A DNA stretch of 40,499 nt from Bdellovibrionales bacterium (GTDB taxonomy: Bacteria > Bdellovibrionota > UBA1018 > CAIMNF01). A program made the translations under genes and the position numbers. The DNA lies in contig JBEIJY010000022.1 of NCBI GenBank assembly GCA_040380025.1, positions 1-40,499 of the forward strand, given 5' to 3'. Below the pieces are notes generated by a model, which saw nothing but the letters and a program-made list of their open reading frames with translations, was not told the DNA's origin and searched no databases. Shown here piece after piece: positions 12,001 through 40,499 of this stretch (position 1 is its first letter; every line of letters begins with the position of its first letter).

Positions 12001-12017
12001 GAAGATTGCGGGTTTTC

Positions 12018-12218
12018 AAACTGTCCCCTTTCATTGTGCTTGTTTCATGGAGGGGATCGGGAGAGGTCTCGGGCATGATTCCGTTTTTACCTCCATGCCG
12101 CGTCCTGCGGCCTCGCTTGCGGCTGTCCTGCCTCGCGAGAGTCGGCAAAAACCGAATCATGCCCGAGACCTCTCCCGATCCCTCCACCTGAATCGAGCAC
12201 AATGAAAGGGGACAGTTT
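12018..12218. repeat. Palindromic intergenic element copy 1: ~70-bp inverted arms around a divergent 58-bp core (12089-12146)
   Basis: 12018-12040 AAACTGTCCCCTTTCATTGTGCT is the exact reverse complement of 12196-12218. Inner arm GGGATCGGGAGAGGTCTCGGGCATGATTC pairs with GAATCATGCCCGAGACCTCTCCCGATCCC. The core aligns to copies 2-4 with about 9 substitutions and 1 indel. Confidence 0.95.
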
Positions 12219-12297
12219 TTGAATCCACGATCGCGCCAGCCCATGTACGGGGAAAGAAGCCCGCCTCTTCCGTGCCGATTTGTGATAGAAACCCCTT

Positions 12298-13332
12298 ATG
12301 TCTACCGCAGAAACCGGAGTCCTTCTTTTGAATCTCGGATCCCCCCGCAGTCCTGACCCTGCTGATGTGCGCGCCTATTTGAAGCAATTTTTGAATGATC
12401 CGTATGTGATCGACATTCCCTGGTTCTTCCGCAAGCTTCTTGTCGATGGAATCATCCTGAACACGAGGCCAAAAAAATCCGCCGAGGCCTATTCGCAGAT
12501 CTGGACCAAAGAAGGCTCGCCGCTGATCGAACACACCAAGGGCCTTGCAAGCAAGGTCCGCTCGAAGCTCGATCAGCCGTCGCGGCCGGTGTCGCTCAAG
12601 ATGGCCATGCGCTACGGATCCCCTTCGATTGAAGAGGCGCTCCGCGAATTCCAGAACGAAGGCGTGCGGGAGCTCGTGTTCCTGCCGCTCTACCCGCAGT
12701 ACTCGTATGCGGCAAGCGAGAGCTCGATTGCGGAATTTGAACGCATTCAGCAATCGATTCTGCCCCATGTGAAAACCCGCGTGATCGAGGACTTTTTTTC
12801 GGAACCCGATTTCCTGACCGCGCTCGCCGCGACCCTGAAGCCGGTACTGGAAGAACAGAAGCCGGATTTGCTGCTTCTGAGCTACCACGGCGTCCCCGAG
12901 CGACAGCTCACGAAAGTGCGGACGAAGCCCGCGGAATGCGGCTCACCCGGATGTTGCGATCACTGGAGCGAGAAGAACCTGAAGTGCTACCGCGCCCAGT
13001 GCTTTGAGACCTCTCGGCGAATCACGCGCGAGCTTGGGCTTGCGCCCGAAAAAGTCATGACGACGTTTCAGTCCCGCCTCGGGCGGACGAAATGGATCGA
13101 GCCCTACACCGATGTGGTTCTCGAAGACCTGCCGAAGCGCGGGATCAAGAACCTCGTCGTGGCATCGCCCTCGTTCACGGCCGACTGCCTCGAGACGCTC
13201 GAAGAAATCCAGATCCGCTACCGAGAGCTGTTTTTGGAATCGGGCGGCGAGCGCTTCACGTATGTGCCGTGCTTGAACTCGCGCGATGATTTCGCCGACT
13301 TCCTGGCGGAACTCGTGCTTCCCTCGAACTGA
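12298..13332 (+). CDS. hemH: Ferrochelatase
   Basis: LLLNLGSP, AMRYGSPSI, PLYPQYS, SYHGVP, FQSRLG, WIEPYT, FTADCLETLEEI. Confidence 0.97.
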   Translation: MSTAETGVLLLNLGSPRSPDPADVRAYLKQFLNDPYVIDIPWFFRKLLVDGIILNTRPKKSAEAYSQIWTKEGSPLIEHTKGLASKVRSKLDQPSRPVSLKMAMRYGSPSIEEALREFQNEGVRELVFLPLYPQYSYAASESSIAEFERIQQSILPHVKTRVIEDFFSEPDFLTALAATLKPVLEEQKPDLLLLSYHGVPERQLTKVRTKPAECGSPGCCDHWSEKNLKCYRAQCFETSRRITRELGLAPEKVMTTFQSRLGRTKWIEPYTDVVLEDLPKRGIKNLVVASPSFTADCLETLEEIQIRYRELFLESGGERFTYVPCLNSRDDFADFLAELVLPSN

Positions 13333-14339
13333 GGCAGCAAAGCAAGGCGCGCAAGCGCCTTCCGGACGGGTGCCGGAACTCCCGGCGGATTCGCGACTTC
13401 GAACCACGCGTTCCGGAGCTTGTCTTCGTTTGTTCTCCTTGAGCATCGAAACACCCGGTGCGTGCGTTCGACCTTGTGCCGGGTCACCACGTACGAAAGA
13501 TCGAATTCGCTCAAAAGGGCAAGCCCCGTTTCATCCGGCGCAAGCGTCGCGGGAAAATCCCAAAGTCCCTCGCGCCACGCGCCCGCCCCGTTTTTTTGAA
13601 GGAGCACCTCAAGGCCCCGGTCTCCGCTTCGCACGAGCACCATGCGCGTCTCGCGCAGATGCTTCCATTCTTTTTTTGCCTTGGGCGCCGGGAAGGCCTG
13701 AGGAGCGGATTTGCCGGTGCATTCCGAGGCCACCGGGCACGCTTCGCACTTCGGACTCTTCGGCGTGCAGACCACGGCTCCGAGCTCCATCAGCGCCTGA
13801 TTGAGCACGCGCGGATCGGCGTTTTTGGTTTCGACGAGCGAGCGCGCAAGGTTCCAGATCTCGGTTTTCTTCGAGTCGAGGGTTGCGATCGAGTGCAGAC
13901 GCGAGAGCACGCGAACGACGTTTCCGTCGACGATCGGTTCTCGTTGTCCGAGCGCGATCGAGCACACGGCACCGGCCGTGTATTCGCCGACCCCCGGAAT
14001 CGCAAGCCACTCCGCGCGGTTTGCCGGAAATCCCTCGTTTCGTTCAAGGCGCGCGGCAATCGCCTTCGCACCCCGATGAAGATTCCGCGCCCGGGAGTAG
14101 TACCCGAGCCCCGCCCAGAGGCGGAACACCCGCTCCTCGTCAGCCCGTGCGAGATCGCCAATGGCCGGAAATTCTTGAAGAAACCGCTCAAAATACGGGA
14201 TCACCGTTGCGACCCTCGTTTGCTGGAGCATGACCTCCGAGAGCCACACGCGGTAGGGATCGGGGGTCTTGCGCCAGGGCAGGTCGCGCGCGTTTTTTTC
14301 GAACCAGATGCTCAGTTTTTTGACGATTTTGACGCTCAC
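13218..14339 (-). CDS. mutY: A/G-specific adenine glycosylase (start reassigned to GTG 14339)
   Basis: RDLPWR, SEVMLQQT, WAGLGYYSRARNL, HhH IPGVGEYTAGA, VDGNVVRV, FCL motif CTPKSPKCEACPVASEC. The longer ORF start (14453) overlaps the divergent amidase gene. Confidence 0.93.
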   Translation of the reverse strand: MSVKIVKKLSIWFEKNARDLPWRKTPDPYRVWLSEVMLQQTRVATVIPYFERFLQEFPAIGDLARADEERVFRLWAGLGYYSRARNLHRGAKAIAARLERNEGFPANRAEWLAIPGVGEYTAGAVCSIALGQREPIVDGNVVRVLSRLHSIATLDSKKTEIWNLARSLVETKNADPRVLNQALMELGAVVCTPKSPKCEACPVASECTGKSAPQAFPAPKAKKEWKHLRETRMVLVRSGDRGLEVLLQKNGAGAWREGLWDFPATLAPDETGLALLSEFDLSYVVTRHKVERTHRVFRCSRRTNEDKLRNAWFEVANPPGVPAPVRKALARLALLPQFEGSTSSARKSAKSSREFKHGTYVKRSPPDSKNSSR

Positions 14340-14367
14340 AAGGAGCGCATGATATCCTCGAACAGGC

Positions 14368-15204
14368 GTGACGAGGAAATCATTTTTTACCGCATTTCTG
14401 CCCCTTCTGATCGGGACTCTCGGCAGTCTCCCCGCGCGCGGCACATCCGGCAACCCGAAATTCCTGGTCGTGATCGATCCAGGGCACGGCGGCTCCGACC
14501 GGGGTGCGGTTCACCAATCGGGCTCGGTCACACTGACCGAAAAGCACTTCACGCTTTTGCTGGCACGCGATCTTGCGCGCGAGCTGATCATCCGCGGACA
14601 CAATGTGATTCTGACCCGGAACGATGACCGCGATGTGCTGTTGAGCGACCGGACCGCGCTCGCCAACCGCGTGAAGGCCGATATTTTCATCTCGCTTCAT
14701 CTGAATTCGAGCGAAGAACAGATCCGCTCGGGCGGGATGGAGACCTTCATTCTGAATCATGCGAGCGATGCGACCTCGCGCCGGCTTGCCGAGTTCGAGA
14801 ATTCCGTGCTGAAGGAATCACAGGCGAATTCGGATTCGTCGAACGTGTCGCTCATCATGAAGGACCTCATGCTCGATGCGAACCTGACTCCGTCACGGGA
14901 CCTTGCCTGCTCGGTGCAATCGCGGATCAGCGTGAATGCGCGCGATCGCGGCGTGAAACAAGCGCTCTTTTATGTGCTTCTCGGGGCCGACATGCCGAGC
15001 ATCCTGATCGAATCGGGATTCATGAATTCCAAAGAAGACCGGGACCGGATTCTCTTCACCCGTCCCCGCATGGTGCTCGCGGCGCAAATCGCGCGCGCGG
15101 TCGATGATTACCGGCTCAAACGGAAACTCGCCCCCTGCAACGTGCTGAGCGAAAAACAGTTCCAACGAAAAGCGGAATTGCCGCGTCCCCGGAATCAGAT
15201 CTGA
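14368..15204 (+). CDS. N-acetylmuramoyl-L-alanine amidase (Amidase_3 catalytic domain with signal peptide)
   Basis: VVIDPGHGG, TEK, LTRNDD, FISLHLN, PSILIESGF; hydrophobic N-terminus. Confidence 0.93.
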   Translation: MTRKSFFTAFLPLLIGTLGSLPARGTSGNPKFLVVIDPGHGGSDRGAVHQSGSVTLTEKHFTLLLARDLARELIIRGHNVILTRNDDRDVLLSDRTALANRVKADIFISLHLNSSEEQIRSGGMETFILNHASDATSRRLAEFENSVLKESQANSDSSNVSLIMKDLMLDANLTPSRDLACSVQSRISVNARDRGVKQALFYVLLGADMPSILIESGFMNSKEDRDRILFTRPRMVLAAQIARAVDDYRLKRKLAPCNVLSEKQFQRKAELPRPRNQI

Positions 15205-15234
15205 TTCCAGTCTCGCGTTTCTTCCCTCATTCGC

Positions 15235-15741
15235 TCAGGCATCCATGGAAAGCCATTTTTTGATCTGATCCGGCAGATCCGGTGTATTGAGATCGGCATT
15301 CACATGCCGGAGCACTTCGGCCGGCGGAAGATTCCGCTGATCCCCCCGGAACAGCGACTTCACGAGCGCTACGGCAATCGTGCGGTTTTTTCGTTCGAAA
15401 CGCTGCTCGATGTAGAACCACTTTTCGTCCCAACCGAGGAGCCTCGTACGGAGACGGTAGCGCTGGAACGGCAAAAGCGACATCTTGTAGCGGATGTTCA
15501 CCGCCCCCGCCAGCGGTTGCCAGCGATGACGCAGAAGGGTCGGAGCAAGCCCGGTCCGGATCAGCAAATCGAGCCTTCCGAGATCCATCACGGCGAGAAA
15601 TCGCCCGTTGTTCATGTGCAGATTGAAATCCAGATCGTTCGGACACACCCTGAGGTTCAGGACTGATTCTTCAAGCGGCGCAATCCTGCTCCGGAAGCAC
15701 GCCCGGACCACCACCCCGATCAGACGGATCAGGAGATTCAT
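15235..15741 (-). CDS. Hot-dog fold thioesterase (4HBT-like)
   Basis: DLDFNLHMNNGRFL and WDEKWFYIEQRF. ATG 15741 overlaps the holA stop (ATGA), so I chose it over 15786. Confidence 0.88.
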   Translation of the reverse strand: MNLLIRLIGVVVRACFRSRIAPLEESVLNLRVCPNDLDFNLHMNNGRFLAVMDLGRLDLLIRTGLAPTLLRHRWQPLAGAVNIRYKMSLLPFQRYRLRTRLLGWDEKWFYIEQRFERKNRTIAVALVKSLFRGDQRNLPPAEVLRHVNADLNTPDLPDQIKKWLSMDA

Positions 15742-16748
15742 GAAGCCCCGCCGGGACGTTTCGAGTCGAACACGAGGGAGGTCCAAAGGCCAAGTCCCTC
15801 GAGGCGCGTATTTTTGAGCGAAAAATCGACCTCAAACAACGCATGCTCGAGGCTCCGGATGCTCGTGGAGTTCCAGAAGCGGGACCAGCGCTCGAGCTTC
15901 GGCTGAAGTGCGGGATTCCGGCGCTCAGTCGCAGGGGCTCGGGATTCGCGTTCCAACAAAAACTGCTTCAGTTGCCGCAGATTCCATGCAAGAAGCCCGA
16001 GAAACGGAAGCTGGGTCTCGAGGTCATCCGAAAAAAGATGCACCAGCGCAAGCGCACGCTTCGAGTCGCGGACGAAGATCGCATCGAGGAACTCGTCGCG
16101 GGCATGGGCTGTGATTCCGGTGCGAAGAATCTCGGATCGCAGATGCTCATCGGAGCCCACAAGCTCGAGTTTCGAGATTTCCTGATCGATGATCTCGAGG
16201 CTCCAAGGCTCAAGGCCCCGAAGCTCCAGACGCTCAGAATCGGTCAGCTTGAAGTTCCGGCGCTTCGCCAAAAAATCGATCCATGCCTCGCGCTCCGCCT
16301 CCTTCACCTCTTCGCAGGGAACGGCAGCGGCGAGCTCGGTGATCGTCTTTGCGGCTTTTTTGCGTCCATCGAGGGAGTTTGCAACGAACACGAGAACGCT
16401 CGTGAATTCCTCGGGCGCGGCGGGCTTGGTCGAGGCGAGAGATTCAAGATATTCGGCCAAGGGGTCGAGTGCACGGATCTCGCCCGCATTGCGCACCACC
16501 ATGAGCTTCGTACCGCCCATCATGGAGGGACTCTGGGCCGAGTCGAGCAGGGCCTGAAGCGGAGCCTCGGAGGAATCCCAGCGCTCGGAGTTGAAATCAT
16601 TGGGTGTTTGATCCTGAAGGACTGCCTTTTGGATCTTCTTCATGAGCTCGCGGGCTTTCATGCGCTCGGGCCCGAAGAGGAAGTACACGGGGCGGACCAG
16701 GCCCTTTTCGAGCTCTTTTTGGACGGCTTTGGGCTCCAGCTTTGGCAT
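15738..16748 (-). CDS. holA: DNA polymerase III delta subunit
   Basis: PVYFLFGPE, DFN...D, SMMGGTKLMVVRNA, LDGRKK, QEISKL, EVDFSLKN; 336 aa. Confidence 0.85.
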   Translation of the reverse strand: MPKLEPKAVQKELEKGLVRPVYFLFGPERMKARELMKKIQKAVLQDQTPNDFNSERWDSSEAPLQALLDSAQSPSMMGGTKLMVVRNAGEIRALDPLAEYLESLASTKPAAPEEFTSVLVFVANSLDGRKKAAKTITELAAAVPCEEVKEAEREAWIDFLAKRRNFKLTDSERLELRGLEPWSLEIIDQEISKLELVGSDEHLRSEILRTGITAHARDEFLDAIFVRDSKRALALVHLFSDDLETQLPFLGLLAWNLRQLKQFLLERESRAPATERRNPALQPKLERWSRFWNSTSIRSLEHALFEVDFSLKNTRLEGLGLWTSLVFDSKRPGGAS

Positions 16749-16896
16749 AGGGATGAAAAAGTTGTACCGAGGGCCCCCGCATTTGGAAAGGCAAAAGCCC
16801 GGGCGGGTTCAGGGAGGCGCGAGGACGGTTCCTTCTTCGCCTGTGCCGGGGATGCGGAGTGCTGGTTGAGATGGGGAGGCACATCAAGAAGGGATT

Positions 16897-16953
16897 GCCT
16901 CCGAGCCGGGTCCTCCGGCCTCGCTTTCGCCATCCTGGCTCGCGAGAGTCGGC
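16897..16953. repeat. Intergenic element copy 2: 57-bp core without matching inverted arms
   Basis: GCCTCCGAGCCGGGTCCTCCGGCCTCGCTTTCGCCATCCTGGCTCGCGAGAGTCGGC is the exact reverse complement of 40414-40470 and 55/57 identical to 36485-36541. Confidence 0.95.
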
Positions 16954-17034
16954 GAAAACTAAATCATTCCCACCCCCTTGGGCGCACACGCAGGGCGCAA
17001 AAGCACATCGAAAGGGAGCAGTTTGGAATCTCCC

Positions 17035-18384
17035 CTACAGGAGATTCGAGGCAAGCTCCGAGAGCTTCGAGCGCTCCCCCTTCACGAAGGTCACGTGCGC
17101 CGCGATCGACTGATCCTTGAACCGGTCGACGAGGTACACGAGCCCGTTGTTCGCGGCATCGACGTACGGATTGTCGATCTGGAACGAGTCCCCGGTCAGC
17201 ACGATCTTGGTGTCATCGCCCGCGCGGGTGATGATCGTCTTGATTTCGTGCGGAGTCAGGTTCTGGGATTCATCGACGATCAGATACTGCTGGGGAATCG
17301 TGCGACCCCGAATGTAAGTGAGCGGCTCGATCTGCAAAAGCCCCTGATTCATGAGCTCCTGCGCGCCCTTCCCCGCTCCCCTGCGGTTCCGGTTCGCGGA
17401 GGATCCGAACAGGAAATCGACGTTGTCGTAGATCGGCTGCATCCAGGGATTCAGCTTTTCTTCGACGGTTCCGGGGAGGAACCCGATGTCTTTTCCGAGC
17501 GGGAATACGGGGCGCGAGACGAGAAGCCGGTGATACACGCCCTCGTCGACCGTCTTGACCAGACCGGCCGCGATGGCAAAGAGGGTTTTCCCCGTTCCGG
17601 CTTTTCCGAGAAGGCTCACGAGCTTCACTTCGTCATTCAAGAGCGCATCGACCGCGAACGCCTGCTCGGCGTTTTTGGGAAAAATCCCCCAGAGGCCTTC
17701 GGGCGGCTTCACGAGCGGCACGATCGATTCGAGTTCTTTCGAGAACCGCCCCATCGCCGTGTGGGTCGGATTCGCATAGTCCTTCAGAATCACGTACTGG
17801 TTCGGGTACAGCGATTTCGGTACTTCTTTTTCGTGCTCGAAGATGCGCTCGGAGAACGGAATGCGCTTGTTCGCATAAAACTCATCGACGAGTCCCGGAT
17901 CGACCCGGATGGTCGAGGAACCGGTATAGAGCTGTTCGGGCTCGACATTCGAGGGTTCGTAGTCTTCGGCCACGACACCCAAGGCATCGGCTTTGATCCG
18001 GAGATTCGCGTCTTTCGTGAGAAACACGATCGGGCGTCTCGGCTGTTCTTTTTTGAGCATGAGGGCAAGACCGAGAATCTTGTTGTCGGCCTTGTCCATT
18101 CCGAGCTCGGAGGGAAGCGGAACATCGCCGCCGCCGAGCTCCACCGTGAGCTGACCGCCGTTCGGGAGCCTCACCCCTTTGGAGAGCTCCCCCGTGGAGC
18201 GCATCTCGTCGATGAGCCGCGAGAAGTGACGCGCATGACGGCCGTTTTCGCTCATCTCGCGCTTGAAACGGTCGATCTCCTCGATCACGACGATGGGAAT
18301 GATCACATCGTTGGACCCGAGCTTGAAAATCGCGAGCGGATCGAACAAGAGAACATTGGTGTCGAGAATGAACGCTTTTTTCAA
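17035..18384 (-). CDS. PIN-domain PhoH-family protein (PhoH2/YlaK type); start TTG 18384
   Basis: PIN motif FILDTNVLL; ADNKIL; TKDANLRIKA; Walker A GKAGTGKT; IGFLPG; LTYIRGRT; IVDESQNLT. AAGGAG RBS precedes the TTG. Confidence 0.93.
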   Translation of the reverse strand: MKKAFILDTNVLLFDPLAIFKLGSNDVIIPIVVIEEIDRFKREMSENGRHARHFSRLIDEMRSTGELSKGVRLPNGGQLTVELGGGDVPLPSELGMDKADNKILGLALMLKKEQPRRPIVFLTKDANLRIKADALGVVAEDYEPSNVEPEQLYTGSSTIRVDPGLVDEFYANKRIPFSERIFEHEKEVPKSLYPNQYVILKDYANPTHTAMGRFSKELESIVPLVKPPEGLWGIFPKNAEQAFAVDALLNDEVKLVSLLGKAGTGKTLFAIAAGLVKTVDEGVYHRLLVSRPVFPLGKDIGFLPGTVEEKLNPWMQPIYDNVDFLFGSSANRNRRGAGKGAQELMNQGLLQIEPLTYIRGRTIPQQYLIVDESQNLTPHEIKTIITRAGDDTKIVLTGDSFQIDNPYVDAANNGLVYLVDRFKDQSIAAHVTFVKGERSKLSELASNLL

Positions 18385-18490
18385 TGGATGCTCCTTCTTG
18401 GCTAGCCGACGGAGAGGGGGTTGGAAAAACGCTCCCCGTTCCCTGAAAAATATCATACGATCGCAAGCACGCGAGCTGAAAAAACAAGAC

Positions 18491-21106
18491 ATGAAAGAAT
18501 TTTTGGATTGGTTGAAAGAAGAGTGCCTGCCCGGGATCTGGTCGAAGGGAGTCCAGGCCTCGCGGAGTGCGAAGTCGATCGAGAAGATCTCTCCCGAGCA
18601 TGAGACCCGCGAACTCCGGTTCAAGGTGACGAGTCCCGAGCGCGTGATCGCGTTCGAAGTCACGCTCTGGCCCGGAGACCAGGATGCCCACTGCAATTGT
18701 GGCAACAAAGCCCAGCCTTGTCATCATATCGTTTCGGCCGCGCTGGCCGTGGCGAACGGAACCCTGCGGGCATCTTCGGACGCCGCGGAGGCATCCCCTG
18801 CTCCGAAGCTCGTATATCGCTGGGAATACCGAAGCGATCCGGACGGTTCGGGAAAGCTCTCGCTCCGGCGAAGCATCGCAAGCGGGGGAACCGAAACTCC
18901 CGTTCCCTCGTCGCTGATCGCCTGGATCGGAGGAATCAAGAGCGGCCGGATCAAGGGGGCGCTTCCGGCGGTGACTGCGAACGACCTCGCGCTCGATGAG
19001 CTTTACGCGCGGGAGACTCCGGAGTGGCCCGAGGTTCTGAGGATTCTTCGGAATTTCCCGCCGATTCCGCTCGAAGGACACCCCGAATGGCGCGAGCTCA
19101 CGGTCCGGGCGCAGTCCGGCGTTCCGGTTCTTCAGGTCCGGGCGCTTGCAATAAACACATTTCGAATCGGACCTCTCGAGGATGAATCGCGAGGGGAAAT
19201 CCTGAAAAACGGACTCCGGATCCGCGACGGAATGCTCGAGTGCGGGAGTACGAGGCCGGTCTTCCGGGAGCGGGTTCTTCGATCTTCGGAAATCACAGAG
19301 TTTGTTTTGAATGAATTGCCACGTCTTCGCGAGGAGTACGAAGTTCTCGATCCGGACGGCGCCCTTCCCGCCATCCACGACGGAACGCCCGGAATTCAAA
19401 TCAAGATCGAAGCCCTCGCCGGGGAGCGCTTTGCCGTGACCGCGGTGCTCGAATATGATCCGCCCCCCGAAGGATCGGTTCTTCGGAGAAATGCGAGCGC
19501 GGAGCGGACCCTGGCGCGCGAGGTCCGCGATTCAATGAATCTCTCCCCCGGAGACCCGCGGATCGTCACCGCATCGGAATTGCTGAACCTGAGAGAAAAA
19601 ACCCGATTTCCGGGAGCAAAAGAGGCTTTTGATGGAGTTCTGGGCGCCTATCTGGACCGCACTGCCGGAATCTCGATCGAGTCGGCGCTTCCTTGCCTCG
19701 AATCCGTGCGAGCCATTCTGCGAATCCGCGAGTCGCAGCCCGCGGAACGGGACCGCACCGGGGCGCTGTTGTCGAGACTCGTGGCGCGAGTTCCCGTTCC
19801 CGAAAAAGAACGTTCCGGTTTGATCCCGCAGACGATCGCAGGCGTACTCCGCGAATATCAAAAAACGGGGGTGAATTGGCTCTCGGACCGCTCCCGCCAT
19901 CTGGGCGGTGCCATTCTTGCGGACGACATGGGACTCGGAAAAACCCTGCAAACCCTGGCCGTGCTCGAAGCACCGTCGCTCGTCGTGGTGCCGACCTCGC
20001 TCCTCGGCGGCTGGAAGTCCGAGGCCGCACGGTTCAGGCCTGATCTGAGCGTGTCGGTTTATCACGGACCGGACCGCGCGTGGAATCCGGCGAGTGGCCT
20101 GACCCTGACCACCTATGCTCTTTTGCGTCAGGAATCGGAGCGGTTTTCGAGTCAGGACTGGAAGTGCGTGGTGCTCGATGAAGCACATTTGATCCGGAAC
20201 CCCGAAACGCAGGCCGCGATCGCAGCCTGCTCCTTGAACGGGAATTTCAGGCTGGCGCTCACGGGAACCCCGATTCAAAACCGGAAACGCGATCTGGAGA
20301 GTCTCTTCCAGTTCATCGCTCCCGGATTGTTCCAAGACGAGTCGGAGCTCCGCGCGGATCTGATCGCGCCGTTTGTGTTGCGCAGAACCAAGGAACAGGT
20401 GCTTCCGGAGCTTCCTCCGAAAACCCGGATCGAACACGGCATTCTTCTTCGCGAGGAGGAGCGGAGATTTTACGATTCGCTTTTTCTTGCCGCAAAAAAG
20501 GAAATTCTATCGCGACTCGATGGAGGAGAGACGCTCTCCCCGCTCACTTTTTTTGAAGTTCTTTTGCGCTCGCGCCAGGCATGCAGTCACAGGAGGCTGA
20601 TCCGGCCTTCGGAGGGAACACCCCGCTCCTCGAAACTGGATGCCATTCTGGGGCTTCTCTCGGAGCTGAACGAGGCGGGACACTCGGTTCTGGTGTATTC
20701 GCAGTGGACGGGGTTTTTGGATCTGCTTGAAGAGGAACTCCGGGGCCGCACCCCCTGCCACCGGCTCGACGGTGCGACTCGGGACCGCGAGGGCGTGGTA
20801 CGGGGATTTCAGGAAGACTCCTCGCCCTCGGTATTCCTGCTCTCGCTCCATGCGGGCGGCGTGGGACTGAATCTCGTCAAAGCGACCCATGTCGTGTTCT
20901 GCGAACCTTGGTGGAACCCGCAGGTGGAATTGCAAGCGGAAGACCGCGCCTTCCGGATGGGGCAGGAAAAACCGGTCACCATTCATCGGTTTTTGGCCAC
21001 GGACACCGTGGAGATGGCGATTCGCGACCTGCAAAAACAGAAACTGGCGCTCGGAGAGGAATGGTTCACCGCCACTGAACTCCGGAAGTTGGTTTTGGAG
21101 GAATGA
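18491..21106 (+). CDS. SWIM zinc-finger SNF2/DEAD-like helicase (start reassigned to ATG 18491)
   Basis: SWIM CNC...PCHH; LADDMGLGKT; LDEAH; LTGTP; HAGGVGLNL; PWWNP; QAEDRAFRMGQ. The upstream extension would overlap the PhoH gene. Confidence 0.92.
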   Translation: MKEFLDWLKEECLPGIWSKGVQASRSAKSIEKISPEHETRELRFKVTSPERVIAFEVTLWPGDQDAHCNCGNKAQPCHHIVSAALAVANGTLRASSDAAEASPAPKLVYRWEYRSDPDGSGKLSLRRSIASGGTETPVPSSLIAWIGGIKSGRIKGALPAVTANDLALDELYARETPEWPEVLRILRNFPPIPLEGHPEWRELTVRAQSGVPVLQVRALAINTFRIGPLEDESRGEILKNGLRIRDGMLECGSTRPVFRERVLRSSEITEFVLNELPRLREEYEVLDPDGALPAIHDGTPGIQIKIEALAGERFAVTAVLEYDPPPEGSVLRRNASAERTLAREVRDSMNLSPGDPRIVTASELLNLREKTRFPGAKEAFDGVLGAYLDRTAGISIESALPCLESVRAILRIRESQPAERDRTGALLSRLVARVPVPEKERSGLIPQTIAGVLREYQKTGVNWLSDRSRHLGGAILADDMGLGKTLQTLAVLEAPSLVVVPTSLLGGWKSEAARFRPDLSVSVYHGPDRAWNPASGLTLTTYALLRQESERFSSQDWKCVVLDEAHLIRNPETQAAIAACSLNGNFRLALTGTPIQNRKRDLESLFQFIAPGLFQDESELRADLIAPFVLRRTKEQVLPELPPKTRIEHGILLREEERRFYDSLFLAAKKEILSRLDGGETLSPLTFFEVLLRSRQACSHRRLIRPSEGTPRSSKLDAILGLLSELNEAGHSVLVYSQWTGFLDLLEEELRGRTPCHRLDGATRDREGVVRGFQEDSSPSVFLLSLHAGGVGLNLVKATHVVFCEPWWNPQVELQAEDRAFRMGQEKPVTIHRFLATDTVEMAIRDLQKQKLALGEEWFTATELRKLVLEE

Positions 21107-21190
21107 CGGGGCGTTTTTTCTGATCCGCGGGACATTTTATCTGACGTAAACACATGGTCTTTTGATCTTTCTTCGGGACGCCAGATGTCA

Positions 21191-21196
21191 TATGAT
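21191..21196 (+). promoter_or_regulatory. Probable -10 box (TATGAT) of glmS, leaderless or near-leaderless
   Basis: TATGAT lies 8 nt before ATG 21205 and there is no Shine-Dalgarno. Confidence 0.45.
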
Positions 21197-21204
21197 CTGG
21201 CCCC

Positions 21205-23052: not shown

Positions 23053-23054
23053 GC

Positions 23055-23405: not shown

Positions 23406-23453
23406 ACGTGAGAAATACACCAAGCGGATTTGGTTTTCCATGCCCGCCCCCGC

Positions 23454-23482: not shown

Positions 23483-23488
23483 TTCTTC

Positions 23489-24340: not shown

Positions 24341-24353
24341 GAGCGAGGGAATC

Positions 24354-29410: not shown

Positions 29411-29430
29411 CCGAACTCCTCCCCGCGAAC

Positions 29431-29452
29431 CCCGGTGATGCGGATCACATTT
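29431..29452. promoter_or_regulatory. CRP/FNR-family transcription factor binding site
   Basis: Minus strand AAATGTGA-TCCGCA-TCACC matches TGTGA-N6-TCACA at 9/10 positions, with an AAA flank. Lies in the short divergent intergenic region. Confidence 0.6.
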
Positions 29453-29454
29453 AA

Positions 29455-32515: not shown

Positions 32516-32519
32516 CCAC

Positions 32520-33290: not shown

Positions 33291-34738
33291 GGGAAGAGGG
33301 CCTTCCGGAACAGGAACACCGATCGCGAAGCCCACTGACGGGAGGCCACGGCTTCTTGCGAGTAGTCGCCGCGAATGCGATTCAAGAGCCCGGGAAGCAA
33401 GTTCTCATCGAGAATGAGCACATCGGCATCGAGCAAGGGCGGGAGATTCTTTTGGGAATGATATCCCACCCGGCGAACCGGCCCCAAAAGATAGGGCAAC
33501 GGCCAGGTGAATTCGCTGACCACCTGGACCCGAAGGGTGGAGGCGAGCGCGGGCTCGTTCTTGATTTTTTTTAAGATCCGCTCCACCGGCGGGAGAAAAT
33601 CGGCATAGGTCTGACCGTAAATGTAGGGATGCCCGTCCTGATCGGGGTCGATCCAGGACACTTGAACCGTCTGCCAGGCAGACGCGATCGCGGCAAAGGC
33701 CACCAGGGCAATCGCCGCGAGGCGAAGGCCTCCTGAAGCGACACGCGAACTCATCCACGAAAACGCACCCGAAATCGCAGAAGCTCCGAACACGGCAAGG
33801 AACCACGCAAACGAGAGCATGCACCACGGAGTCTTGTACGGAACCGCGGAATACATGAACCAGAGGACTGCTCCGATCACGCCGGCCAGCCGGGCATCGC
33901 GATCTGCCCGTTTGGCAAGAAACGGAAGTGCCAGAAGCCCCACTAAGGGAAGCCATTCGTACCGGAACAGAAGCCCGATCCAATACCAGAAGGGCTTTTG
34001 GTGGCCGTTGCCGTGGGAGCCGGTTTCGAACCACTTCAGGAAGGCCTCGAAGAACTTCGCAAACCCCGCCCATTCCTGGAAAAACCCTGTGAAGAACACC
34101 AAGACGGGAATCAAGGAGAGCCCGAGACAGGCGAAAGCTCCGGGCCAGAAGGCCCGTGTGAACACACGCGAAACCCGACGGTCGGACCGCCAAACGGCAA
34201 GCTCGGCGATTCCGAGCGCGGCACCGAAGATCGCGAAATTCTCTTTCAGCGAAGCCATGAGACCGACCGTGAGCGAAAGCCATGCGATTCTTGGGCCCGT
34301 CCACCCGTCCTCGCGGATTCGGAGCCATTGATGAAAAAACAACACGCAAGCGAGCGCGAATCCCGTTTCGTGAATCGCATACCGCGAGTAAAACACGAAG
34401 GCCGGCGACACCGAGAGGAACAGCGCCGCAATCCATGCGGTCAGGAATCCGATTCGTTTCCGGAACAACAGAGGGCTCAACGAAAGAAGCGTCCCGAAAA
34501 GGGCCGCGGGAATCCGGAGCGCGATCACGTCTCTTCCGAAAATCGATTCCGAGAGCGCCAGCAGATAGAAGAACAAGGGCCCATGGTAGTTGTTCGGATC
34601 ATACGAGTAAAACCCCTCGCGGAACAATCCGTCGACAAACCATCCATTCACCGCCTCATCGTGATGAATCGGACGGGCATCGAGAAAAACAAAGCGCAAA
34701 AGGGCCAGAACAAGCAGTGGAAGCACGGAACGGAACAT
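33287..34738 (-). CDS. GT-C/PMT-like polytopic glycosyltransferase (TIGR03663/Agl23-like)
   Basis: RPIHHDEAVN, YSYDPNNYHGP, FYSRYAIHE, KEN, PYKTPW, WPLPY; many TM helices. Confidence 0.82.
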   Translation of the reverse strand: MFRSVLPLLVLALLRFVFLDARPIHHDEAVNGWFVDGLFREGFYSYDPNNYHGPLFFYLLALSESIFGRDVIALRIPAALFGTLLSLSPLLFRKRIGFLTAWIAALFLSVSPAFVFYSRYAIHETGFALACVLFFHQWLRIREDGWTGPRIAWLSLTVGLMASLKENFAIFGAALGIAELAVWRSDRRVSRVFTRAFWPGAFACLGLSLIPVLVFFTGFFQEWAGFAKFFEAFLKWFETGSHGNGHQKPFWYWIGLLFRYEWLPLVGLLALPFLAKRADRDARLAGVIGAVLWFMYSAVPYKTPWCMLSFAWFLAVFGASAISGAFSWMSSRVASGGLRLAAIALVAFAAIASAWQTVQVSWIDPDQDGHPYIYGQTYADFLPPVERILKKIKNEPALASTLRVQVVSEFTWPLPYLLGPVRRVGYHSQKNLPPLLDADVLILDENLLPGLLNRIRGDYSQEAVASRQWASRSVFLFRKALFP

Positions 34739-34744
34739 GCTTCA

Positions 34745-34750
34745 ATGCTA
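34745..34750 (-). promoter_or_regulatory. Probable -10 box (TAGCAT) for leaderless transcription of the 34738 gene
   Basis: Minus strand TAGCAT-TGAAGC-ATG (6-nt spacer); no Shine-Dalgarno on that strand. Confidence 0.5.
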
Positions 34751-34766
34751 ACGGAGGAGGTTTGAC

Positions 34767-36416
34767 ATGAAAATGTCTTTTCGGCCGGTGCACGCGGTTT
34801 TGGCCGTGTGTTCGATCGCGATCGCCGGGGTGTTCCTCTCCCTCTTCGGAACCGGACCGGACGGGTCGTGGATGCTCCGGAGTTATGCGGTCTGGGGCGA
34901 CTGGTCGGCGCACCTGAGTCTGATTTCGGCCTTCCGGGAACGCGGCATCGGCTGGGTGACCGGTGAGAATCCGCTGTTTCACGGGGCGGGTTTTCAGTAT
35001 CCCTTCTTGAGCCATCTTCTCACGGCAGGCCTAGCCGAAATCACCGGGTGCGACACCCTTGGCGTCACCCTTGCCCTCAGTTTGATTTTTCTCCTCGCCC
35101 TGCCCTTTCTTTTGTACCGGTTCTATCGGATCTTCCGGCTGAGCCGGGTGGCATCTCTTTATTCGTGCCTCGTGTTTTTGTTTCTCGGTGGATTCCAGAT
35201 TTTTGACCGGACTCTGCCTGAGAGCGGACCGGTCACGAATCAATTCGATTCGGGCTCGGTCTTCACCCAGCTGCTTTTGTTCGAATTCATTCCCCAGCGT
35301 GCCTTCCTGTTCGGCATGGCTCTGGTTCTCGGCTTGATCACCCATATGGGAGCCGCCCGGTCCGGACCGAAAAAAACGGCATGGATTGCGTCCTGCCTCC
35401 TCGGTGTCACACCGCTCGTGCATCTTCACTCCTGGCCTGCGCTCGGGGTGCTTTTGCTGGCATTCCTCGCCTTCCCGGCTCCGGGGAAATCTCCCCTCGC
35501 TTCGCGCAAGTCGGTCCTGTCCCACGGACTCCTGATCCTCGCCCTCTCGGGCCCGATCGCCGCCGCTCTTTTACTGCACAAGCACGCAGCTACGGCCTCT
35601 TCGTGGGAGGTCTGGTTTCCGGGATGGGCGCAAAATGCGGGAGCCGGACTTCCGGCAGCCGCGATGATGAACCCGATCTGGTTCTGGCTCTACAACACGG
35701 GAGTGTTTCTGCCGCTCTGTTTGTTCGGCGTTTTTTTGGCCTCGCGAACCCGAAGCGGCGGAGCGACTCCGGAACTTCGGAGCCTCGGCGCACCGGGACT
35801 CGCCGGAGCGGTGCTCTTCGTGATTGCACTCCTGTTCCGGACCCAGCCCAATTTTTATGACAACCTGAAGATCTTCACTTGGGCGTTCTTGTTCTTGGCG
35901 CCGTTTGCGGGCATTGCGCTCGAGCGCATCCAAAAACGATTCTGGCCGGCGGCGGTTGCGATTCTGATTCTGCAAACAGCCTCGGCCGTACGGGATTTTT
36001 CGTTCTTCGTGAGCCCGGGACAGCCGGTGACCTGGCTCGAATCGTCCGAGGTCGATCTCGCCCGGGAGTTCAAAACGATCCGATCGTCGGCGGATGAATT
36101 GGTGCTGATCCAGCCCCGTCACAATCACTGGGTTCCGATGCTCACCGGAAACCCCGTGGTCATGGGATATGCGGGATGGCTTTGGAGCTGGGGGATCGCG
36201 TACCGGGAGACGGAGCAGAAGATCGACCGGATTTTGCTTGGAGCTCCGGATGCGGCGGAGCTCGTGCGGGAGCTTCATCCGCGCTGGATCGTCCTCGATC
36301 GGCGGACGCGCGTGCGGGGGCGGGAGATCGATTTCGATTTTTTTGATCGGCACTACCGAAGGGTCCTCGAGCGGGACGCCTGGGTGGTTTTCTCGGTGGA
36401 GGATTCAGCGAAGTGA
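34767..36416 (+). CDS. Polytopic membrane protein, probable GT-C fold glycosyltransferase
   Basis: More than 10 hydrophobic segments; first external loop WGDWSAH...YPFLSH; PQRAFLFG; soluble C-terminal domain with GYAGWLWSWG; GGAGGAGG RBS. Confidence 0.68.
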   Translation: MKMSFRPVHAVLAVCSIAIAGVFLSLFGTGPDGSWMLRSYAVWGDWSAHLSLISAFRERGIGWVTGENPLFHGAGFQYPFLSHLLTAGLAEITGCDTLGVTLALSLIFLLALPFLLYRFYRIFRLSRVASLYSCLVFLFLGGFQIFDRTLPESGPVTNQFDSGSVFTQLLLFEFIPQRAFLFGMALVLGLITHMGAARSGPKKTAWIASCLLGVTPLVHLHSWPALGVLLLAFLAFPAPGKSPLASRKSVLSHGLLILALSGPIAAALLLHKHAATASSWEVWFPGWAQNAGAGLPAAAMMNPIWFWLYNTGVFLPLCLFGVFLASRTRSGGATPELRSLGAPGLAGAVLFVIALLFRTQPNFYDNLKIFTWAFLFLAPFAGIALERIQKRFWPAAVAILILQTASAVRDFSFFVSPGQPVTWLESSEVDLAREFKTIRSSADELVLIQPRHNHWVPMLTGNPVVMGYAGWLWSWGIAYRETEQKIDRILLGAPDAAELVRELHPRWIVLDRRTRVRGREIDFDFFDRHYRRVLERDAWVVFSVEDSAK

Positions 36417-36443
36417 GAAATGATTTCGATGGTGTCTGAAACG

Positions 36444-36582
36444 GGAGCGGGTCGGGAATGGGGCTGGGACAGGAAAATCGGATTGCCTCCGAGCCGGGTC
36501 GTCCGGCCTCGCTTTCGCCTTCCTGGCTCGCGAGAGTCGGCAATCCGATTTTCCTGTCCCAGCCCCATTCCCGACCCGCTCC
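36444..36582. repeat. Palindromic intergenic element copy 3: perfect 41-bp inverted arms around a 57-bp core (36485-36541)
   Basis: 36444-36484 GGAGCGGGTCGGGAATGGGGCTGGGACAGGAAAATCGGATT is the exact reverse complement of 36542-36582. Degenerate pairing extends to about 36422/36607. Confidence 0.97.
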
Positions 36583-36611
36583 TCGATTCCAGTCACAACC
36601 AGAAATCCGAC

Positions 36612-38231
36612 TCATTTCGCTGATTCCGCCACGAGATCGCCCTCGCGGTCCGTCCGGCGGACTCTGCCGGCGAACCGTTCAAGCCTCTCGAGAACCTCGG
36701 GAGCAGGATGACGGTAGCGGTTTTTTCGTCCGACCGAGATCCAGAACTCTGCGGGGTTGATCTCTCGCAGGACTTCCGGATCGGATGAGAATCTCGATCC
36801 ATGATGACCGATCTTGAAGATGCGGCGGGTGTGTGCGCGGATTTCGGGTTCGAATTCGGCAAGAAACTTCTTCTCCTGGATCGCATCTCCGTCCCCGAGC
36901 GCGAGGTACAAGACTCCACTCGAGGCCGAGGCGATGCCCGCCATCCATTCATTTCCTTTCTGGCCTTTTCGCTTGCTTTCGAACCACTCCACCCGCGCAT
37001 TTCGAATGCAGCCTCTCGACACCACCGCGATTGCGGGATGGGTGTGTGCAATCCAATCAAGAATGCGCGCGCCCCGCTCCTCGCGTTGATGCGGCTCCCC
37101 GATCTCGATGCACCCGACCGGGAACAACGCAAGAAGCACGGGCAGCGCCCCGATGTGATCTTCGTCCAGATGTGTGAGCAACACTCCGTCCACGCGACTC
37201 ACCCCGTGCCTCGAAAGCGTGCGGATCCACCGATCGGGCGACTGGACCCGAAGGCTCCCCGCATCGATCAGCTCGATTCTTCCGGGCCGAATCAGGAGCG
37301 CTGAATCGCCCTGCCCCACATCGAGCTGGACGGTCGCCTGAGTATTTTTTTCGGGGGTGAACGCCCGCGAAGCGAGCAAAAGAAGGAACAACGGAACCAG
37401 CAGGATCGGCCGTTTTCGGAAGCGGAACACGAGCGCACCGCAGATCAGGACGATCGGAAAAAAACGAATCCCCGCCGTGACCGGGGGTGGAAGAACCTCG
37501 GCAAGAGCGATCATTGCCTGAAGAAAAAGACTCCAAAGCGAGAGGAGCCATTCCGGAGTGCCTCCCGTGAGCGCGTGCGCGATCAGCGTGACCGGGTAGA
37601 GCCCCATGCTGATCGGAGTGATTGATACGAGGTTCAGCACGGGTGTTGATGCGACGATCAGACGGTCCCGGAACAAGTCGAGCAGCGCGATCGGAACCCA
37701 CGAGAATACCGCCATGCGGACATGCGTGCGGAATCCGCTCTCGCGAACACCCCCGGGCCGGGACAACGCAAGAAGGGATCCCCCCACGGCGAGATAATAA
37801 TGAACGGCTCCGTGTGAAAGGCCCTCGGGAATGCGGAGCAAACACTCCGTCAAAAAAACCACGAAGAGCGGAAGCAGGATCGGGGTCCGGAATCCGGTCG
37901 CGCGGACGCCCATCCGGATCAGCACCGAAAAGAGCGGACGGAAGAGCGAGAAGTGAAACCCCTCGATCTTCCAGACCAGAAGACAGACCGAAAAAAACAG
38001 AACATGGATCCCCGGACGGACCACCCGAATCGGAATCCCAAGCGCCATCCCCCCTCGCTTGCACGCCAGTTCGATCCAAAAAAACAGAGCAAGCAAATGA
38101 ATCCCGCTTGCCGAGAACAAATGCACGAACCCGAGGTCGCGGAAGAATCCGTCAAACCGCGAGGGCACCGGCTCATGAAACAGAAGCGCACGGACGAGGT
38201 CGAGCGATGCGGAGCGTAGGGGTTCGGTCAT
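36612..38231 (-). CDS. comEC: ComEC/Rec2 competence DNA-uptake channel (start likely ATG 38231)
   Basis: Competence motif HLFSASGIHL; TM region; MBL domain LDVGQGDS, LIDAG, THLDEDH, GHHGS, SVGRKNRYRHP. The ORF-track extension to 38624 overlaps the J-domain gene. Confidence 0.9.
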   Translation of the reverse strand: MTEPLRSASLDLVRALLFHEPVPSRFDGFFRDLGFVHLFSASGIHLLALFFWIELACKRGGMALGIPIRVVRPGIHVLFFSVCLLVWKIEGFHFSLFRPLFSVLIRMGVRATGFRTPILLPLFVVFLTECLLRIPEGLSHGAVHYYLAVGGSLLALSRPGGVRESGFRTHVRMAVFSWVPIALLDLFRDRLIVASTPVLNLVSITPISMGLYPVTLIAHALTGGTPEWLLSLWSLFLQAMIALAEVLPPPVTAGIRFFPIVLICGALVFRFRKRPILLVPLFLLLLASRAFTPEKNTQATVQLDVGQGDSALLIRPGRIELIDAGSLRVQSPDRWIRTLSRHGVSRVDGVLLTHLDEDHIGALPVLLALFPVGCIEIGEPHQREERGARILDWIAHTHPAIAVVSRGCIRNARVEWFESKRKGQKGNEWMAGIASASSGVLYLALGDGDAIQEKKFLAEFEPEIRAHTRRIFKIGHHGSRFSSDPEVLREINPAEFWISVGRKNRYRHPAPEVLERLERFAGRVRRTDREGDLVAESAK

Positions 38232-38244
38232 CACGGGAAACCCT

Positions 38245-38273
38245 TTGCTTGCATAAATCGGGCCCCGTATACT
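38245..38273 (+). promoter_or_regulatory. Sigma70-type promoter giving a leaderless transcript for the J-domain gene
   Basis: TTGCTT-N17-TATACT-N6-ATG (38280); no Shine-Dalgarno. Confidence 0.7.
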
Positions 38274-38279
38274 GGTCGT

Positions 38280-38750
38280 ATGGAGATCGCGGAATGGATT
38301 GCGCGAAATTTCGAGACCATTCAGAAGGGAATCCTGATCCTGGGACTCCTGTCCGCGCTGTGGTTCCTGAGAATCCGTCAAAACCCATCGCAGTTCCGGG
38401 CGCGCGAGGCGGACCGCTCGGATCTGGACCGGTTCCTGAACTCGAGTCCGGAATCCGGACGCTCTTCGAGAGCCCCGGGACCGAGAAAAAACCGTCCGCC
38501 GCCCCCGCTCCTCCTGCCCGGAATCCGACTGACGGGTGAGCCCCATGAGATTCTCGGGATTCCCGAGAACTCGACCGAGCTCGAGATTCTTCGCGCCTAC
38601 AAAGAGGCGATCAAGCGCTTTCATCCCGACACGATTCAGGGTTCGGCGCGCGAGCAGATGCGGTTTTACGAAGAAGCGTCCGCCCGGATCAACGACGCAA
38701 AAGAAACAATGATCCGCAGGCTGAGAAATCAGGGCGGCCGTTCTTACTGA
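38280..38750 (+). CDS. Membrane-anchored J-domain (DnaJ-like) protein
   Basis: N-terminal TM (GILILGLLSALWFL); PHEILGI...ILRAYKEAIKRFHPD...INDA J-domain with HPD. Confidence 0.9.
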   Translation: MEIAEWIARNFETIQKGILILGLLSALWFLRIRQNPSQFRAREADRSDLDRFLNSSPESGRSSRAPGPRKNRPPPPLLLPGIRLTGEPHEILGIPENSTELEILRAYKEAIKRFHPDTIQGSAREQMRFYEEASARINDAKETMIRRLRNQGGRSY

Positions 38751-38802
38751 TTACAAACTGCGCACTTTGAGCTGAGCACGGGCCTTGCAATCAATTTGAT
38801 TG

Positions 38803-40335
38803 ATGCAGATTCACTCGCTCTTTGTCTCTGACACACAACCCGAGCTGATCACGATCGAGTACAGCTCCCGGTTCCAGGTTCCCGGGTTTCAGATTCTCGG
38901 GCTCCCTGCTCCCGAGATTCAGGAGGCGCGCGAGCGGATCGCCTCGTCGTTTCAGGCGGCCGGATACGAGTTCCCGAAAAAAAAAGTCCTCGTCAATCTC
39001 TCGCCGGCATCCGTACGAAAATCAGGAACCGGCCATGATCTCGCAATCGCACTGAAGATCCTGTCCGAGACCCTCGATCTCTCCTGGCCCGAGAAAGTCC
39101 TTGCCCGCGGCGAGCTCGGGCTCGATGGTTCGATCCGCTCCGTCGGAAAGATCGCCCATCTGATCGAGCTTCTTCTCACCCGATTCGAGCGAGGCTCCCT
39201 TCCCGCGCTGATTCTTGCTCCTGCGGACCACATCGAGTTCTTGCGCCTCTGCCAGTGGCGGGCCGAGAAAAACCTTCCCGTGCCGGAACCCGCGACCCTG
39301 TACCGGATCTCGAACCTGAGCGAGCTTTCATCGGTCCTCGCCACGCGCCCATCCTCGACGAACCTCGAGGAAGCGCTCGCCCCGCTCGCCCTGCACGAGA
39401 GGAGTGCAGCCGTTCTTTTGCCGCTTCCGCGATTCCAGGAAAGAATCGTGAAGCTCGGAAGCATCGGCCGCCACCACGTGCTGGTGCTCGGACCGAAAGG
39501 AGTCGGAAAATCCACCTCGTTTGACTGGTTCCGGGCCCTTGCACCACACCCCGGCCCCGATCAGGCGTGGGAGCGCGCGCTTTTTTTGGAAAGCCGGAAC
39601 GAAAGGCCGGCCTTTGATGCTCCGGTGCGACGGGTGCATGCGCAGGTGAAACCTCCGCATCTGCTCGGATCCTACGGCATGCACGGATTCCGCGCGGGGG
39701 AACTCTCCCTTGCGCATGGTGGGATTCTGTTCGCCGATGAATTCATGGAATGGCCACGCGATTCGAAAGAATGCCTGCGGGAGCCGCTTCAGACCGAGAC
39801 ACTGATTTTGACGAGGGTCAAAGGGACTCTCGAAGCAAAGTGCGACATCCAGCTGATCGCGAGCGGCAACCTCTGTCCCTGCGGGGGATTTCCGCCCCAG
39901 CTGAAAGCGTTCGGGTATACGAGTTCGCTCCGCTGTCGTTGCTCGACACCCGAGATCCAAAGTTATCTGCAAAGGCTCTCGGGCCCGATTCTCGATCGGA
40001 TTGATCTTGTGGCCTTGTTCACAGATACGCCGGTCCCGCAGGAGGAGCACACCCGCACGGCCTCGGATCTTCGTGGCGAGATCGAAGCCGCCCGAACCCT
40101 GGTCCTCGGACGCTATGGGTGTTTTCCGGCGAAGATCCCGCCGCAGAATCTCGAAAAACTGATCCCCCGCACGGGTCCGACGTCAAAACTTCTCTCTGAG
40201 ATCGGCAGTCTCCGCTCGCGACACAAAACCATCCGGGTCGCCCTTTCGATCCAGGCGCTCGAGGGGGCCTCCGAGCTCAGGGAGGAGCATGTGCTGGAGT
40301 CCCGCTCGTACCGGTTTCTGGATTCGTGGATTTGA
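38803..40335 (+). CDS. comM: ComM/YifB Mg-chelatase-like AAA+ ATPase (divergent)
   Basis: ILGLP...EARERI, VNLSPASVRKSGTGHDLAIA, GELGLDG, Walker A GPKGVGKST, GELSLAHGGILFADEF, NLCPCG, CRC, LSGPILDRIDL. Confidence 0.88.
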   Translation: MQIHSLFVSDTQPELITIEYSSRFQVPGFQILGLPAPEIQEARERIASSFQAAGYEFPKKKVLVNLSPASVRKSGTGHDLAIALKILSETLDLSWPEKVLARGELGLDGSIRSVGKIAHLIELLLTRFERGSLPALILAPADHIEFLRLCQWRAEKNLPVPEPATLYRISNLSELSSVLATRPSSTNLEEALAPLALHERSAAVLLPLPRFQERIVKLGSIGRHHVLVLGPKGVGKSTSFDWFRALAPHPGPDQAWERALFLESRNERPAFDAPVRRVHAQVKPPHLLGSYGMHGFRAGELSLAHGGILFADEFMEWPRDSKECLREPLQTETLILTRVKGTLEAKCDIQLIASGNLCPCGGFPPQLKAFGYTSSLRCRCSTPEIQSYLQRLSGPILDRIDLVALFTDTPVPQEEHTRTASDLRGEIEAARTLVLGRYGCFPAKIPPQNLEKLIPRTGPTSKLLSEIGSLRSRHKTIRVALSIQALEGASELREEHVLESRSYRFLDSWI

Positions 40336-40384
40336 CCGGAGAAACCGCACTCTTCGCTTGTGCTTGAGGAAAGTGCGGGATGGG

Positions 40385-40499
40385 GGGAAGGGATCTGGAA
40401 GGATTCAGTTTTTGCCGACTCTCGCGAGCCAGGATGGCGAAAGCGAGGCCGGAGGACCCGGCTCGGAGGCAAAAACCGAATCCTTCCAGATCCCTTCCC
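40385..40499. repeat. Palindromic intergenic element copy 4 (inverted orientation), running to the window end: 29-bp arms around a 57-bp core (40414-40470)
   Basis: 40385-40413 and 40471-40499 are reverse complements with 1 mismatch. The core is the exact reverse complement of the copy 2 core. Confidence 0.95.

Follow-up and report, generated by a model that had tools for sequence, protein, structure and literature searches.

Contig JBEIJY010000022.1 of the Bdellovibrionales bacterium assembly GCA_040380025.1, analysed over its full 40,499 nt (the window), carries four copies of a dispersed repeat in which a 57-nt core is held between two long inverted arms. The repeat is very probably a MITE (miniature inverted-repeat transposable element), that is, a gene-less, non-autonomous mobile element. 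With moderate confidence, we further propose that this ~197-bp element is moved in trans by an enzyme like that of the insertion sequence (IS) IS1, and that its conserved core, which flips, is read by a host protein as a folded single strand. What makes bacteria retain dispersed repeats is a standing question, and selection on single copies has rarely been evidenced. Here, the 57-nt core is ~95% identical at orthologous sites, in either orientation, while neutral sites are nearly half changed.

A gene-less element with IS-type ends

The source assembly (G000) comprises 2.35 Mb, and the window is the whole of its contig C22. The genome-wide count of cores proposed in the preliminary description of this DNA, made here with an iterated profile, gave 89 matches in G000, among which some broken copies are counted twice and 34 lie no more than 120 nt from a contig end. 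Arm and terminus statistics refer to the 55 matches with 140 nt of flank on each side. The element is ~197 bp long and has two ~70-bp arms, each ending in a conserved terminus of ~20–22 bp that starts with NNAACTG; both of these terminal inverted repeats (TIRs) are intact (>10 bits) in 25 of the 55 copies. Direct repeats of 9 bp, located two bases outside the AACTG motif, accompany 5 of the 25 intact copies compared with 1 of 600 shuffled pairings, and a local-alignment test for duplication over all 55 copies gave 5 versus 0.03%. Among copies with genes on both sides, 19 of 25 have a stop codon within 21 nt of an element end, against 7% of intergenic positions expected under a null that leaves selection against promoter damage out of account.

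The site of copy 3 of the window is empty in 5/5 relatives, and a site on contig C25 is empty in the relative G002, where the region of the 9-mer is present once; the copy 1 site is not syntenic in 4/4 relatives. For IS-ended copies, the empty copy 3 and C25 sites rule out that the arms are target DNA copied upon insertion, which answers in the negative the earlier question whether one arm was pre-existing target DNA. The element is short, lacks a transposase gene and occurs in many copies, and it has TIRs shared with an IS, target duplications and empty orthologous sites, all of which are marks of a MITE. The preliminary description had already inferred a non-autonomous mobile element, which the IS-type ends, 9-bp duplications and empty sites bear out. 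Its "inside-out" architecture without conserved termini has to be given up: the IS-type TIRs are conserved, and the arms, described as unrelated between copies, share an outer terminus of ~20 nt and average 50–68% identity. It had also seen neither a transposase nor a target duplication; window copies 1–3 indeed lack a duplication, but both exist elsewhere in the genome. Two points weigh against this picture, namely that 20 of the 25 copies with intact termini show no 9-bp duplication and that gene ends, on which the stop-codon and orientation counts draw, were taken from a home-made gene caller.

Core-less deletion derivatives with both termini also occur in G000 (C2:109543, C7:7722, C9:89233, C13:35204, C18:24702, C42:9805, and C44:2992). 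A pattern limited to 181–211 bp further returned a second ~197-bp family in G002, with IS-type termini, asymmetric interiors and no core pattern (C1:137813, C3:156595, C4:76310, and C4:174582).

In the window, the four cores lie where they had been placed. As reported, core 2 is identical to core 4; core 3 agrees with them at 55/57 positions, and core 1, with 58 nt, is more diverged. The copies and the adjoining gene ends are as follows.

12017..12219, plus strand: copy 1, an entire element in the kup–hemH interval, with IS-type termini at 12019 and 12217
12089..12146, folded GGA-loop strand minus (core orientation reported as +): copy 1 core, 58 nt
16826..16896, plus strand: copy 2 left arm, probably part of a holA–nrdR copy that has its other arm on contig C49
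16897..16953, folded strand minus: copy 2 core, 57 nt, the commonest variant (13 identical matches) and probable chimeric join point
16954..17025, plus strand: copy 2 right arm with IS-type terminus, probably part of a phoH-side copy whose partner arm is on C51
36390..36416, plus strand: 3' end of the gene for a 549-aa protein, an inverted near-copy of the comEC 3' end across copy 3
36417..36613, plus strand: copy 3, old, with decayed termini and 44-bp perfect inner arms; empty site in relatives
36485..36541, folded strand minus: copy 3 core, whose nearest paralogue is 1 difference away
36612..36638, minus strand: comEC 3' end, an inverted near-copy of 36390–36416
40343..40499, minus strand: copy 4, 3' of a YifB-like gene, core at 40414–40470; cut by the contig end and continued on C39

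Core orientation is + in copies 1, 2 and 3 and − in copy 4. The near-perfect pairing of arms reported within each copy holds for copy 1 (39 nt at 95% and 44 nt at 82%, in arms of ~70 nt, with the target duplication no longer present), copy 3 (44 nt at 100%) and copy 4 (32 nt at 97%), but not for copy 2, whose arms agree at 20/40 positions. As had been suspected, copy 4 is cut short by the end of the window; its missing arm was located at the end of contig C39. The left arm of copy 2 and the arm that closes C49 agree at 40/40 positions, its right arm and the one that closes C51 at 39/40, and in 5/5 relatives nrdR (on C49 in G000) adjoins holA and the last C51 gene adjoins phoH. Copy 2 would thus lack matching arms because it is a chimera of two copies joined at an identical core; it is probably a misjoin, which would make the holA–phoH adjacency in the window false, although it may instead be a genuine rearrangement. 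Public contigs (four sequencing runs from one study) break at cores and gave no informative joint, and none bridges the core of copy 2; among the sequencing runs listed as holding the repeat, none was of RNA. Mismatched arms were also seen at C1:133328, C15:53653, and C4:45063, which may be chimeras or recombinants.

Conservation of the core and its inversion in place

Structural analysis covered 80 parsed sequences of 91 unique cores among 122. The minus strand folds as a Y with a GA/GNNA internal loop and an almost invariant GGAGG; 1012 of 1040 helix cells are Watson–Crick, and compensatory swaps occur in all three helices. G.T pairs number 17 on the minus strand and 2 on the plus strand. 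GGA is found in 66/80 first loops and likewise in 66/80 second loops. The view that the core is more conserved than its arms, which are homogenised in each copy and carry the core atop a long stem, has stood up. At old sites in particular, the mean distance to the nearest paralogous core is 1.0 in 12 copies with decayed termini (17.5 of 40 positions lost) versus 1.1 in 20 intact copies. Long core variants, with an extra branched insert of ~57 nt in the internal loop, are present in G000 at C40:12670-12783 and C40:2425.

The comparison of orthologues used loci from G002, G010 and G013 (29, 14, and 17 cores sampled, respectively), and three further shared sites with unlike arms were excluded. 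Between G002 and G010 or G013, ten orthologous pairs at six loci differ at 0–7 of 58 core positions (mean 3.2), whereas flanking four-fold sites are identical at 99/193 and 192/301 (51–64%). In 7/10 pairs, the orthologous core is closer than the nearest sampled paralogue of either genome, which argues for selection at each site and not for conversion. Two facts temper this argument: seven core differences occur in two lineages of the ten pairs, and conservation of helix 3 and the 3' end in relatives is partly circular because both are in the search pattern.

The arms evolve on different terms. At positions 11–30 from the core, the two arms within a copy are 0.86–0.87 identical compared with 0.59–0.61 between copies, and at positions 41–50 the values are 0.62 and 0.50, respectively. 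The preliminary description had set against its own view the prospect that arms would fall into a few conserved classes, as in ordinary MITE subfamilies. This is half the case: among 55 copies, the arms form 37 clusters at 85% identity and 18 at 75%, yet the best match of an arm is still the second arm of its own copy in 31/55. In copy 3, the symmetry extends ~26 nt past the element into both gene ends, as a result of which the 549-aa protein and ComEC end nearly alike (VEDSAK and VAESAK); symmetry extensions scoring at least 12 were seen in 2/55 copies and in none of the control pairings.

Ten orthologous loci have homologous arms, and at four of them, as counted from pairs, the core lies the other way round while arms and flanks keep their orientation. 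The cleanest flip (L240/L254) has matching flanks on both sides and arms 96–98% identical. Telling against the flips is that one of the four depends on a single conserved flank and another on a single homologous arm. Both the copying between arms and the flipping of the core probably happen in place. Such changes have precedents. Template switching between inverted repeats homogenises arms and inverts spacers (PMC8604942), and TIR–TIR recombination inverts the IS ISWpi1 (PMC3004938). The spacers concerned are 2–5 bp in yeast in the first case (PMC8604942) and a whole IS in Wolbachia in the second (PMC3004938), compared with a selected, structured 57-nt core here. Either template switching or inter-arm recombination could keep the arms paired and flip the core, and both fit the data. 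Arm wobble shows no bias relative to the transcribed strand (26:22), and arm mismatches favour the minus strand as in the core (66:38 after de-duplication, mostly from G000).

The idea that the core might be a known Rfam family finds no backing, as no family reached the gathering score over the window; at E≤5, copies 1 and 3 gave nothing specific in Rfam, only generic miRNA-hairpin models below threshold. A terminator was rejected on reading the sequence, without a terminator scan, since T runs lie ahead of the hairpin on both strands. A K-turn was rejected for the GA/GNNA internal loop, which misfits the K-turn consensus.

Several features recall MITEs that have cognate IS (Nezha/ISNpu3, Correia/nemis, and IMU), which are likewise shorter than 400 bp, share TIRs with an IS, make target duplications, have empty and filled sites, and form a long stem-loop (PMC3184786). 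Unlike them, the present element has ~70-bp homologous arms that evolve in concert, a core that outlasts the termini at old sites and inverts in place, and the same core on non-IS carriers. The bcr1 element of the Bacillus cereus group is also MITE-like, with ~155 bp, compensatory changes and a branched fold on a long stem; it differs in its 5-bp repeats and non-conserved genomic distribution (PMC3184786). Here, by contrast, old copies with a conserved core persist across species, and a candidate transposase is present. MITEs with cognate IS and MITEs with compensated folds are already known (PMC3184786).

A candidate IS1-like transposase

Lone termini, when followed, led to a protein of ~305 aa encoded on G000 contigs C12 and C5; pieces of it lie on C46, C38, and C20. 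Full copies with the core flank the C5 gene on either side. The C12 gene is bordered by elements that have these termini but no core. Homologues are present in 15/41 genomes, and a homologue of the transposase is labelled Bdellovibrionales; 17 of 29 loci are IS of 964–1166 bp with element-like termini, and only one of these has a 9/9 duplication. The IS1 model NF033558 matches residues 46–167, covering the zinc finger and helix-turn-helix (HTH), at E 1.2e-10 and 41.7 bits versus a cut-off of 100. The N-terminal zinc finger, with conserved cysteines, and HTH are as in the IS1 family. DDE_Tnp_IS1 gave no match among 44 members. In the Atlas, most of the nearest clusters come from Bdellovibrionota, and the nearest of those that bear a Pfam domain carry DDE_Tnp_IS1. 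The predicted fold (mean predicted local distance difference test score, 79.5) is RNase H-like and resembles DDE transposases and integrases, best ISCth4. Acidic residues D134, D135, E137, and D213, forming two acidic sites, are invariant. The enzyme is called "IS1-like" because its score is below the family cut-off and its third catalytic position reads N/H and not E.

The termini of the element track the local IS: in G002, 23/48 arms match the G010/G013 IS end at 18 or more of 22 positions, compared with 0/48 for the IS end on G000 C46. Within the genus, the core pattern occurs in 7/10 genomes with the IS and 0/7 without it, these genomes being kin and not independent. Target duplications of the IS1 family measure 8–9 bp. 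The termini NNAACTG differ from the IS1 start. IS1 elements share with the candidate a zinc finger, an HTH, an RNase H-like catalytic domain and imperfect TIRs of ~22–30 bp, and IS1 moves mini-elements in trans (PMC12903888). Unlike IS1, the candidate is encoded by a single open reading frame of ~305 aa in 1.0–1.17 kb, has a third catalytic residue that is apparently not Glu, and falls below the NCBIfam cut-off. Judging from these sequence comparisons, the IS1-like transposase of this lineage is a candidate mover that likely acts on the element in trans, and it possibly targets stop codons. Four observations count against the assignment: a 9-bp duplication is missing from 16/17 IS copies; at the third catalytic position, N259/H260 is read and not Glu in the expected helix; G000 termini agree with C46, the only conventional IS end found there, at a median of 15/22 positions; and the exact terminus match in G000 is circular because it comes from the C5 and C12 copies.

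Other features of these loci were noted. At G000 C5:99903-101243, C12:43758-45070, and L015, the ends of the transposase gene are seemingly replaced by mini-elements, and the reading frame ends within the downstream terminus; this recalls RAYT loci, as does the pair of copies flanking the C5 gene. By eye, the IS often starts a few bases after an upstream stop codon, as the MITE does (L014, L019, L022, L030, L031, L035, and L041). A motif resembling the sigma-54 promoter consensus immediately precedes the transposase gene in 4/17 IS by a strict pattern, at the left ends of L017, L019, L040, and L041, and by eye also in G000 C5 and C12.

Carriers and readers of the core

The core pattern was found in 10/116 genomes of the order, three of which belong to another family, where the cores mostly sit in arms without IS ends. 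Related cores also cap hairpins that follow tRNA genes, namely tRNA-Gln, -Arg, and -Pro in G000 and tRNA-Ser and -Pro in G016, G011, and G007. In most of these hairpins the 3' end of the tRNA, or its tail, recurs in inverted form, and at C7:7861 a core lies between unrelated arms. Since hairpins lacking IS ends also hold related cores, the IS is a carrier of the core and not its origin, which counts against the mechanism favoured below, and the core is older than its IS carrier. Five G000 tRNA genes (C1:102085, C5:23139, C26:3376, C29:181, and C1:113071) are followed by long hairpins or inverted 3'-end copies, and some tRNA-linked hairpins there alternate with a second GC-rich structured unit. 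A collection-wide pattern scan covered 45/64 parts, and its matches outside records titled Bdellovibrionota or pond metagenome-assembled genomes were without arms and look like chance. No description of this repeat family was found in the open literature, with subscription journals, ISfinder and supplements outside the search.

The mechanism that we favour would comprise four steps. The element would insert next to stop codons, as its copies do, some with 9-bp duplications, with the ~305-aa IS1-like enzyme as the presumed mover. At old sites, the termini are lost, the inner 24–38 bp of the arms stay matched, and the core inverts; template switching or arm–arm recombination could cause both the matching and the inversion. 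Finally, locus-specific core variants persist across species far above neutral identity, whatever the orientation, as purifying selection on a protein-binding structure would predict. That structure would most likely be read on DNA, where the arms would help to open a hairpin or cruciform, in which case orientation would not matter.

The closest competitor to this proposal shares the MITE and the arm copying and differs in the role of the core, which would act as RNA: its minus strand would bind CsrA, making the repeat a dispersed sponge or a switch in 3' untranslated regions. We regard this as rather unlikely overall, although it comes close. The minus strand shows the two GGA loops, ~23 nt apart, and the invariant GGAGG, the G.T wobble lies on this strand, and copies stand directly behind stop codons. 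On the same strand, loops of the tRNA-tail cores read CANGGANG, the high-affinity CsrA/RsmE form, for which a spacing of 18–21 nt is given (PMC4894983); the loops agree with it in form and in spacing. The csrA gene is present in 5/5 genomes, which adds little because it is widespread. However, copies show no orientation bias relative to read-through transcription (24:19); read-through runs along the GGA strand in only 19/43, and cores are no better kept there, core decay being independent of the transcribed strand. Flipped orthologues retain the core (0–5 differences), a G000 subfamily has CGA/UGA in place of GGA in both loops, and where copies are linked to a tRNA, GGA lies on the strand antisense to it. 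As core conservation ignores orientation, a folded-DNA binder is slightly favoured over CsrA as the candidate reader. On the other side of the balance, the analysis identified no DNA-binding protein as reader of the core, and an RNA reader would suit the GGA loops at least equally.

An improbable alternative treats the core as a selfish unit that copies 65–70 nt of adjacent DNA into its own arms by fold-back synthesis, giving rise to the MITE at an IS end and to tail hairpins at tRNA 3' ends. The element may have originated by such copying. The tRNA-linked hairpins with their inverted tRNA sequences, the unrelated arms at C7:7861, the inverted copying into gene ends at copy 3, and the cores with non-IS arms in three genomes of another family would all follow. 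Against this, IS-ended copies insert whole, with direct duplications, and selection on old cores would be left unexplained. Nor was a copying enzyme evident: reverse transcriptase searches were negative in G000 and G010 and positive in 3/5 genomes, and the two Y1-type genes of G000 lack the first HUH histidine and have orthologues without the element. These Y1_Tnp-like genes (C13:34583-35182 and C25:18392-18895), with degenerate HUH motifs, are kept partly syntenic across the genus and are possibly domesticated and non-catalytic.

The repeat could also be a MITE of the ordinary kind, its long hairpin being put up with, or of use, at the 3' ends of mRNAs, with a core that only appears conserved through recent copying or conversion. 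In its favour, 13 identical cores sit in unlike arms, and long stems are common in MITEs, with compensatory changes in bcr1 (PMC3184786). The orthologue comparison largely refutes this explanation: 7/10 pairs keep locus-specific variants rather than converting, and cores are intact where termini have decayed. We therefore consider it very improbable. Lastly, a REPIN-type element moved by a RAYT-like HUH transposase is highly implausible: REPINs are likewise a hairpin-forming repeat population near genes (PMC8049555), and a copy of the hairpin-rich core lies just downstream of both G000 Y1-type genes, but REPINs have a diverse spacer (PMC8049555), unlike the centre here, which is the most conserved part, and the present element has IS-type TIRs, 9-bp duplications and a DDE-type enzyme, while the HUH motif is degenerate in G000, G002, and G010, no intact HUH transposase is flanked by the repeat, and no core lies near any of the 20 Y1 loci scanned in relatives.

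These findings provide a small, defined element together with a named candidate enzyme, a possible stop-codon-targeting IS1-like transposase. They also offer a record, left by nature, of how arms are homogenised and spacers inverted, and a caution for genome assembly, as the repeat produces chimeric joins. Tentatively, and as a possibility rather than an expectation, the core may be seen as an ancient Y-shaped module of Bdellovibrio-like bacteria that travels on varied carriers, such as IS1-like ends and tRNA tails. A stop-codon-targeting transposase would put it at gene ends, and the host would keep it as a binding site that can invert and works in either orientation, be it a landmark of folded DNA or a CsrA sponge dispersed over the genome. 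In either case, the pattern of conservation suggests that the cell likely uses the folded 57-base centre for some purpose.

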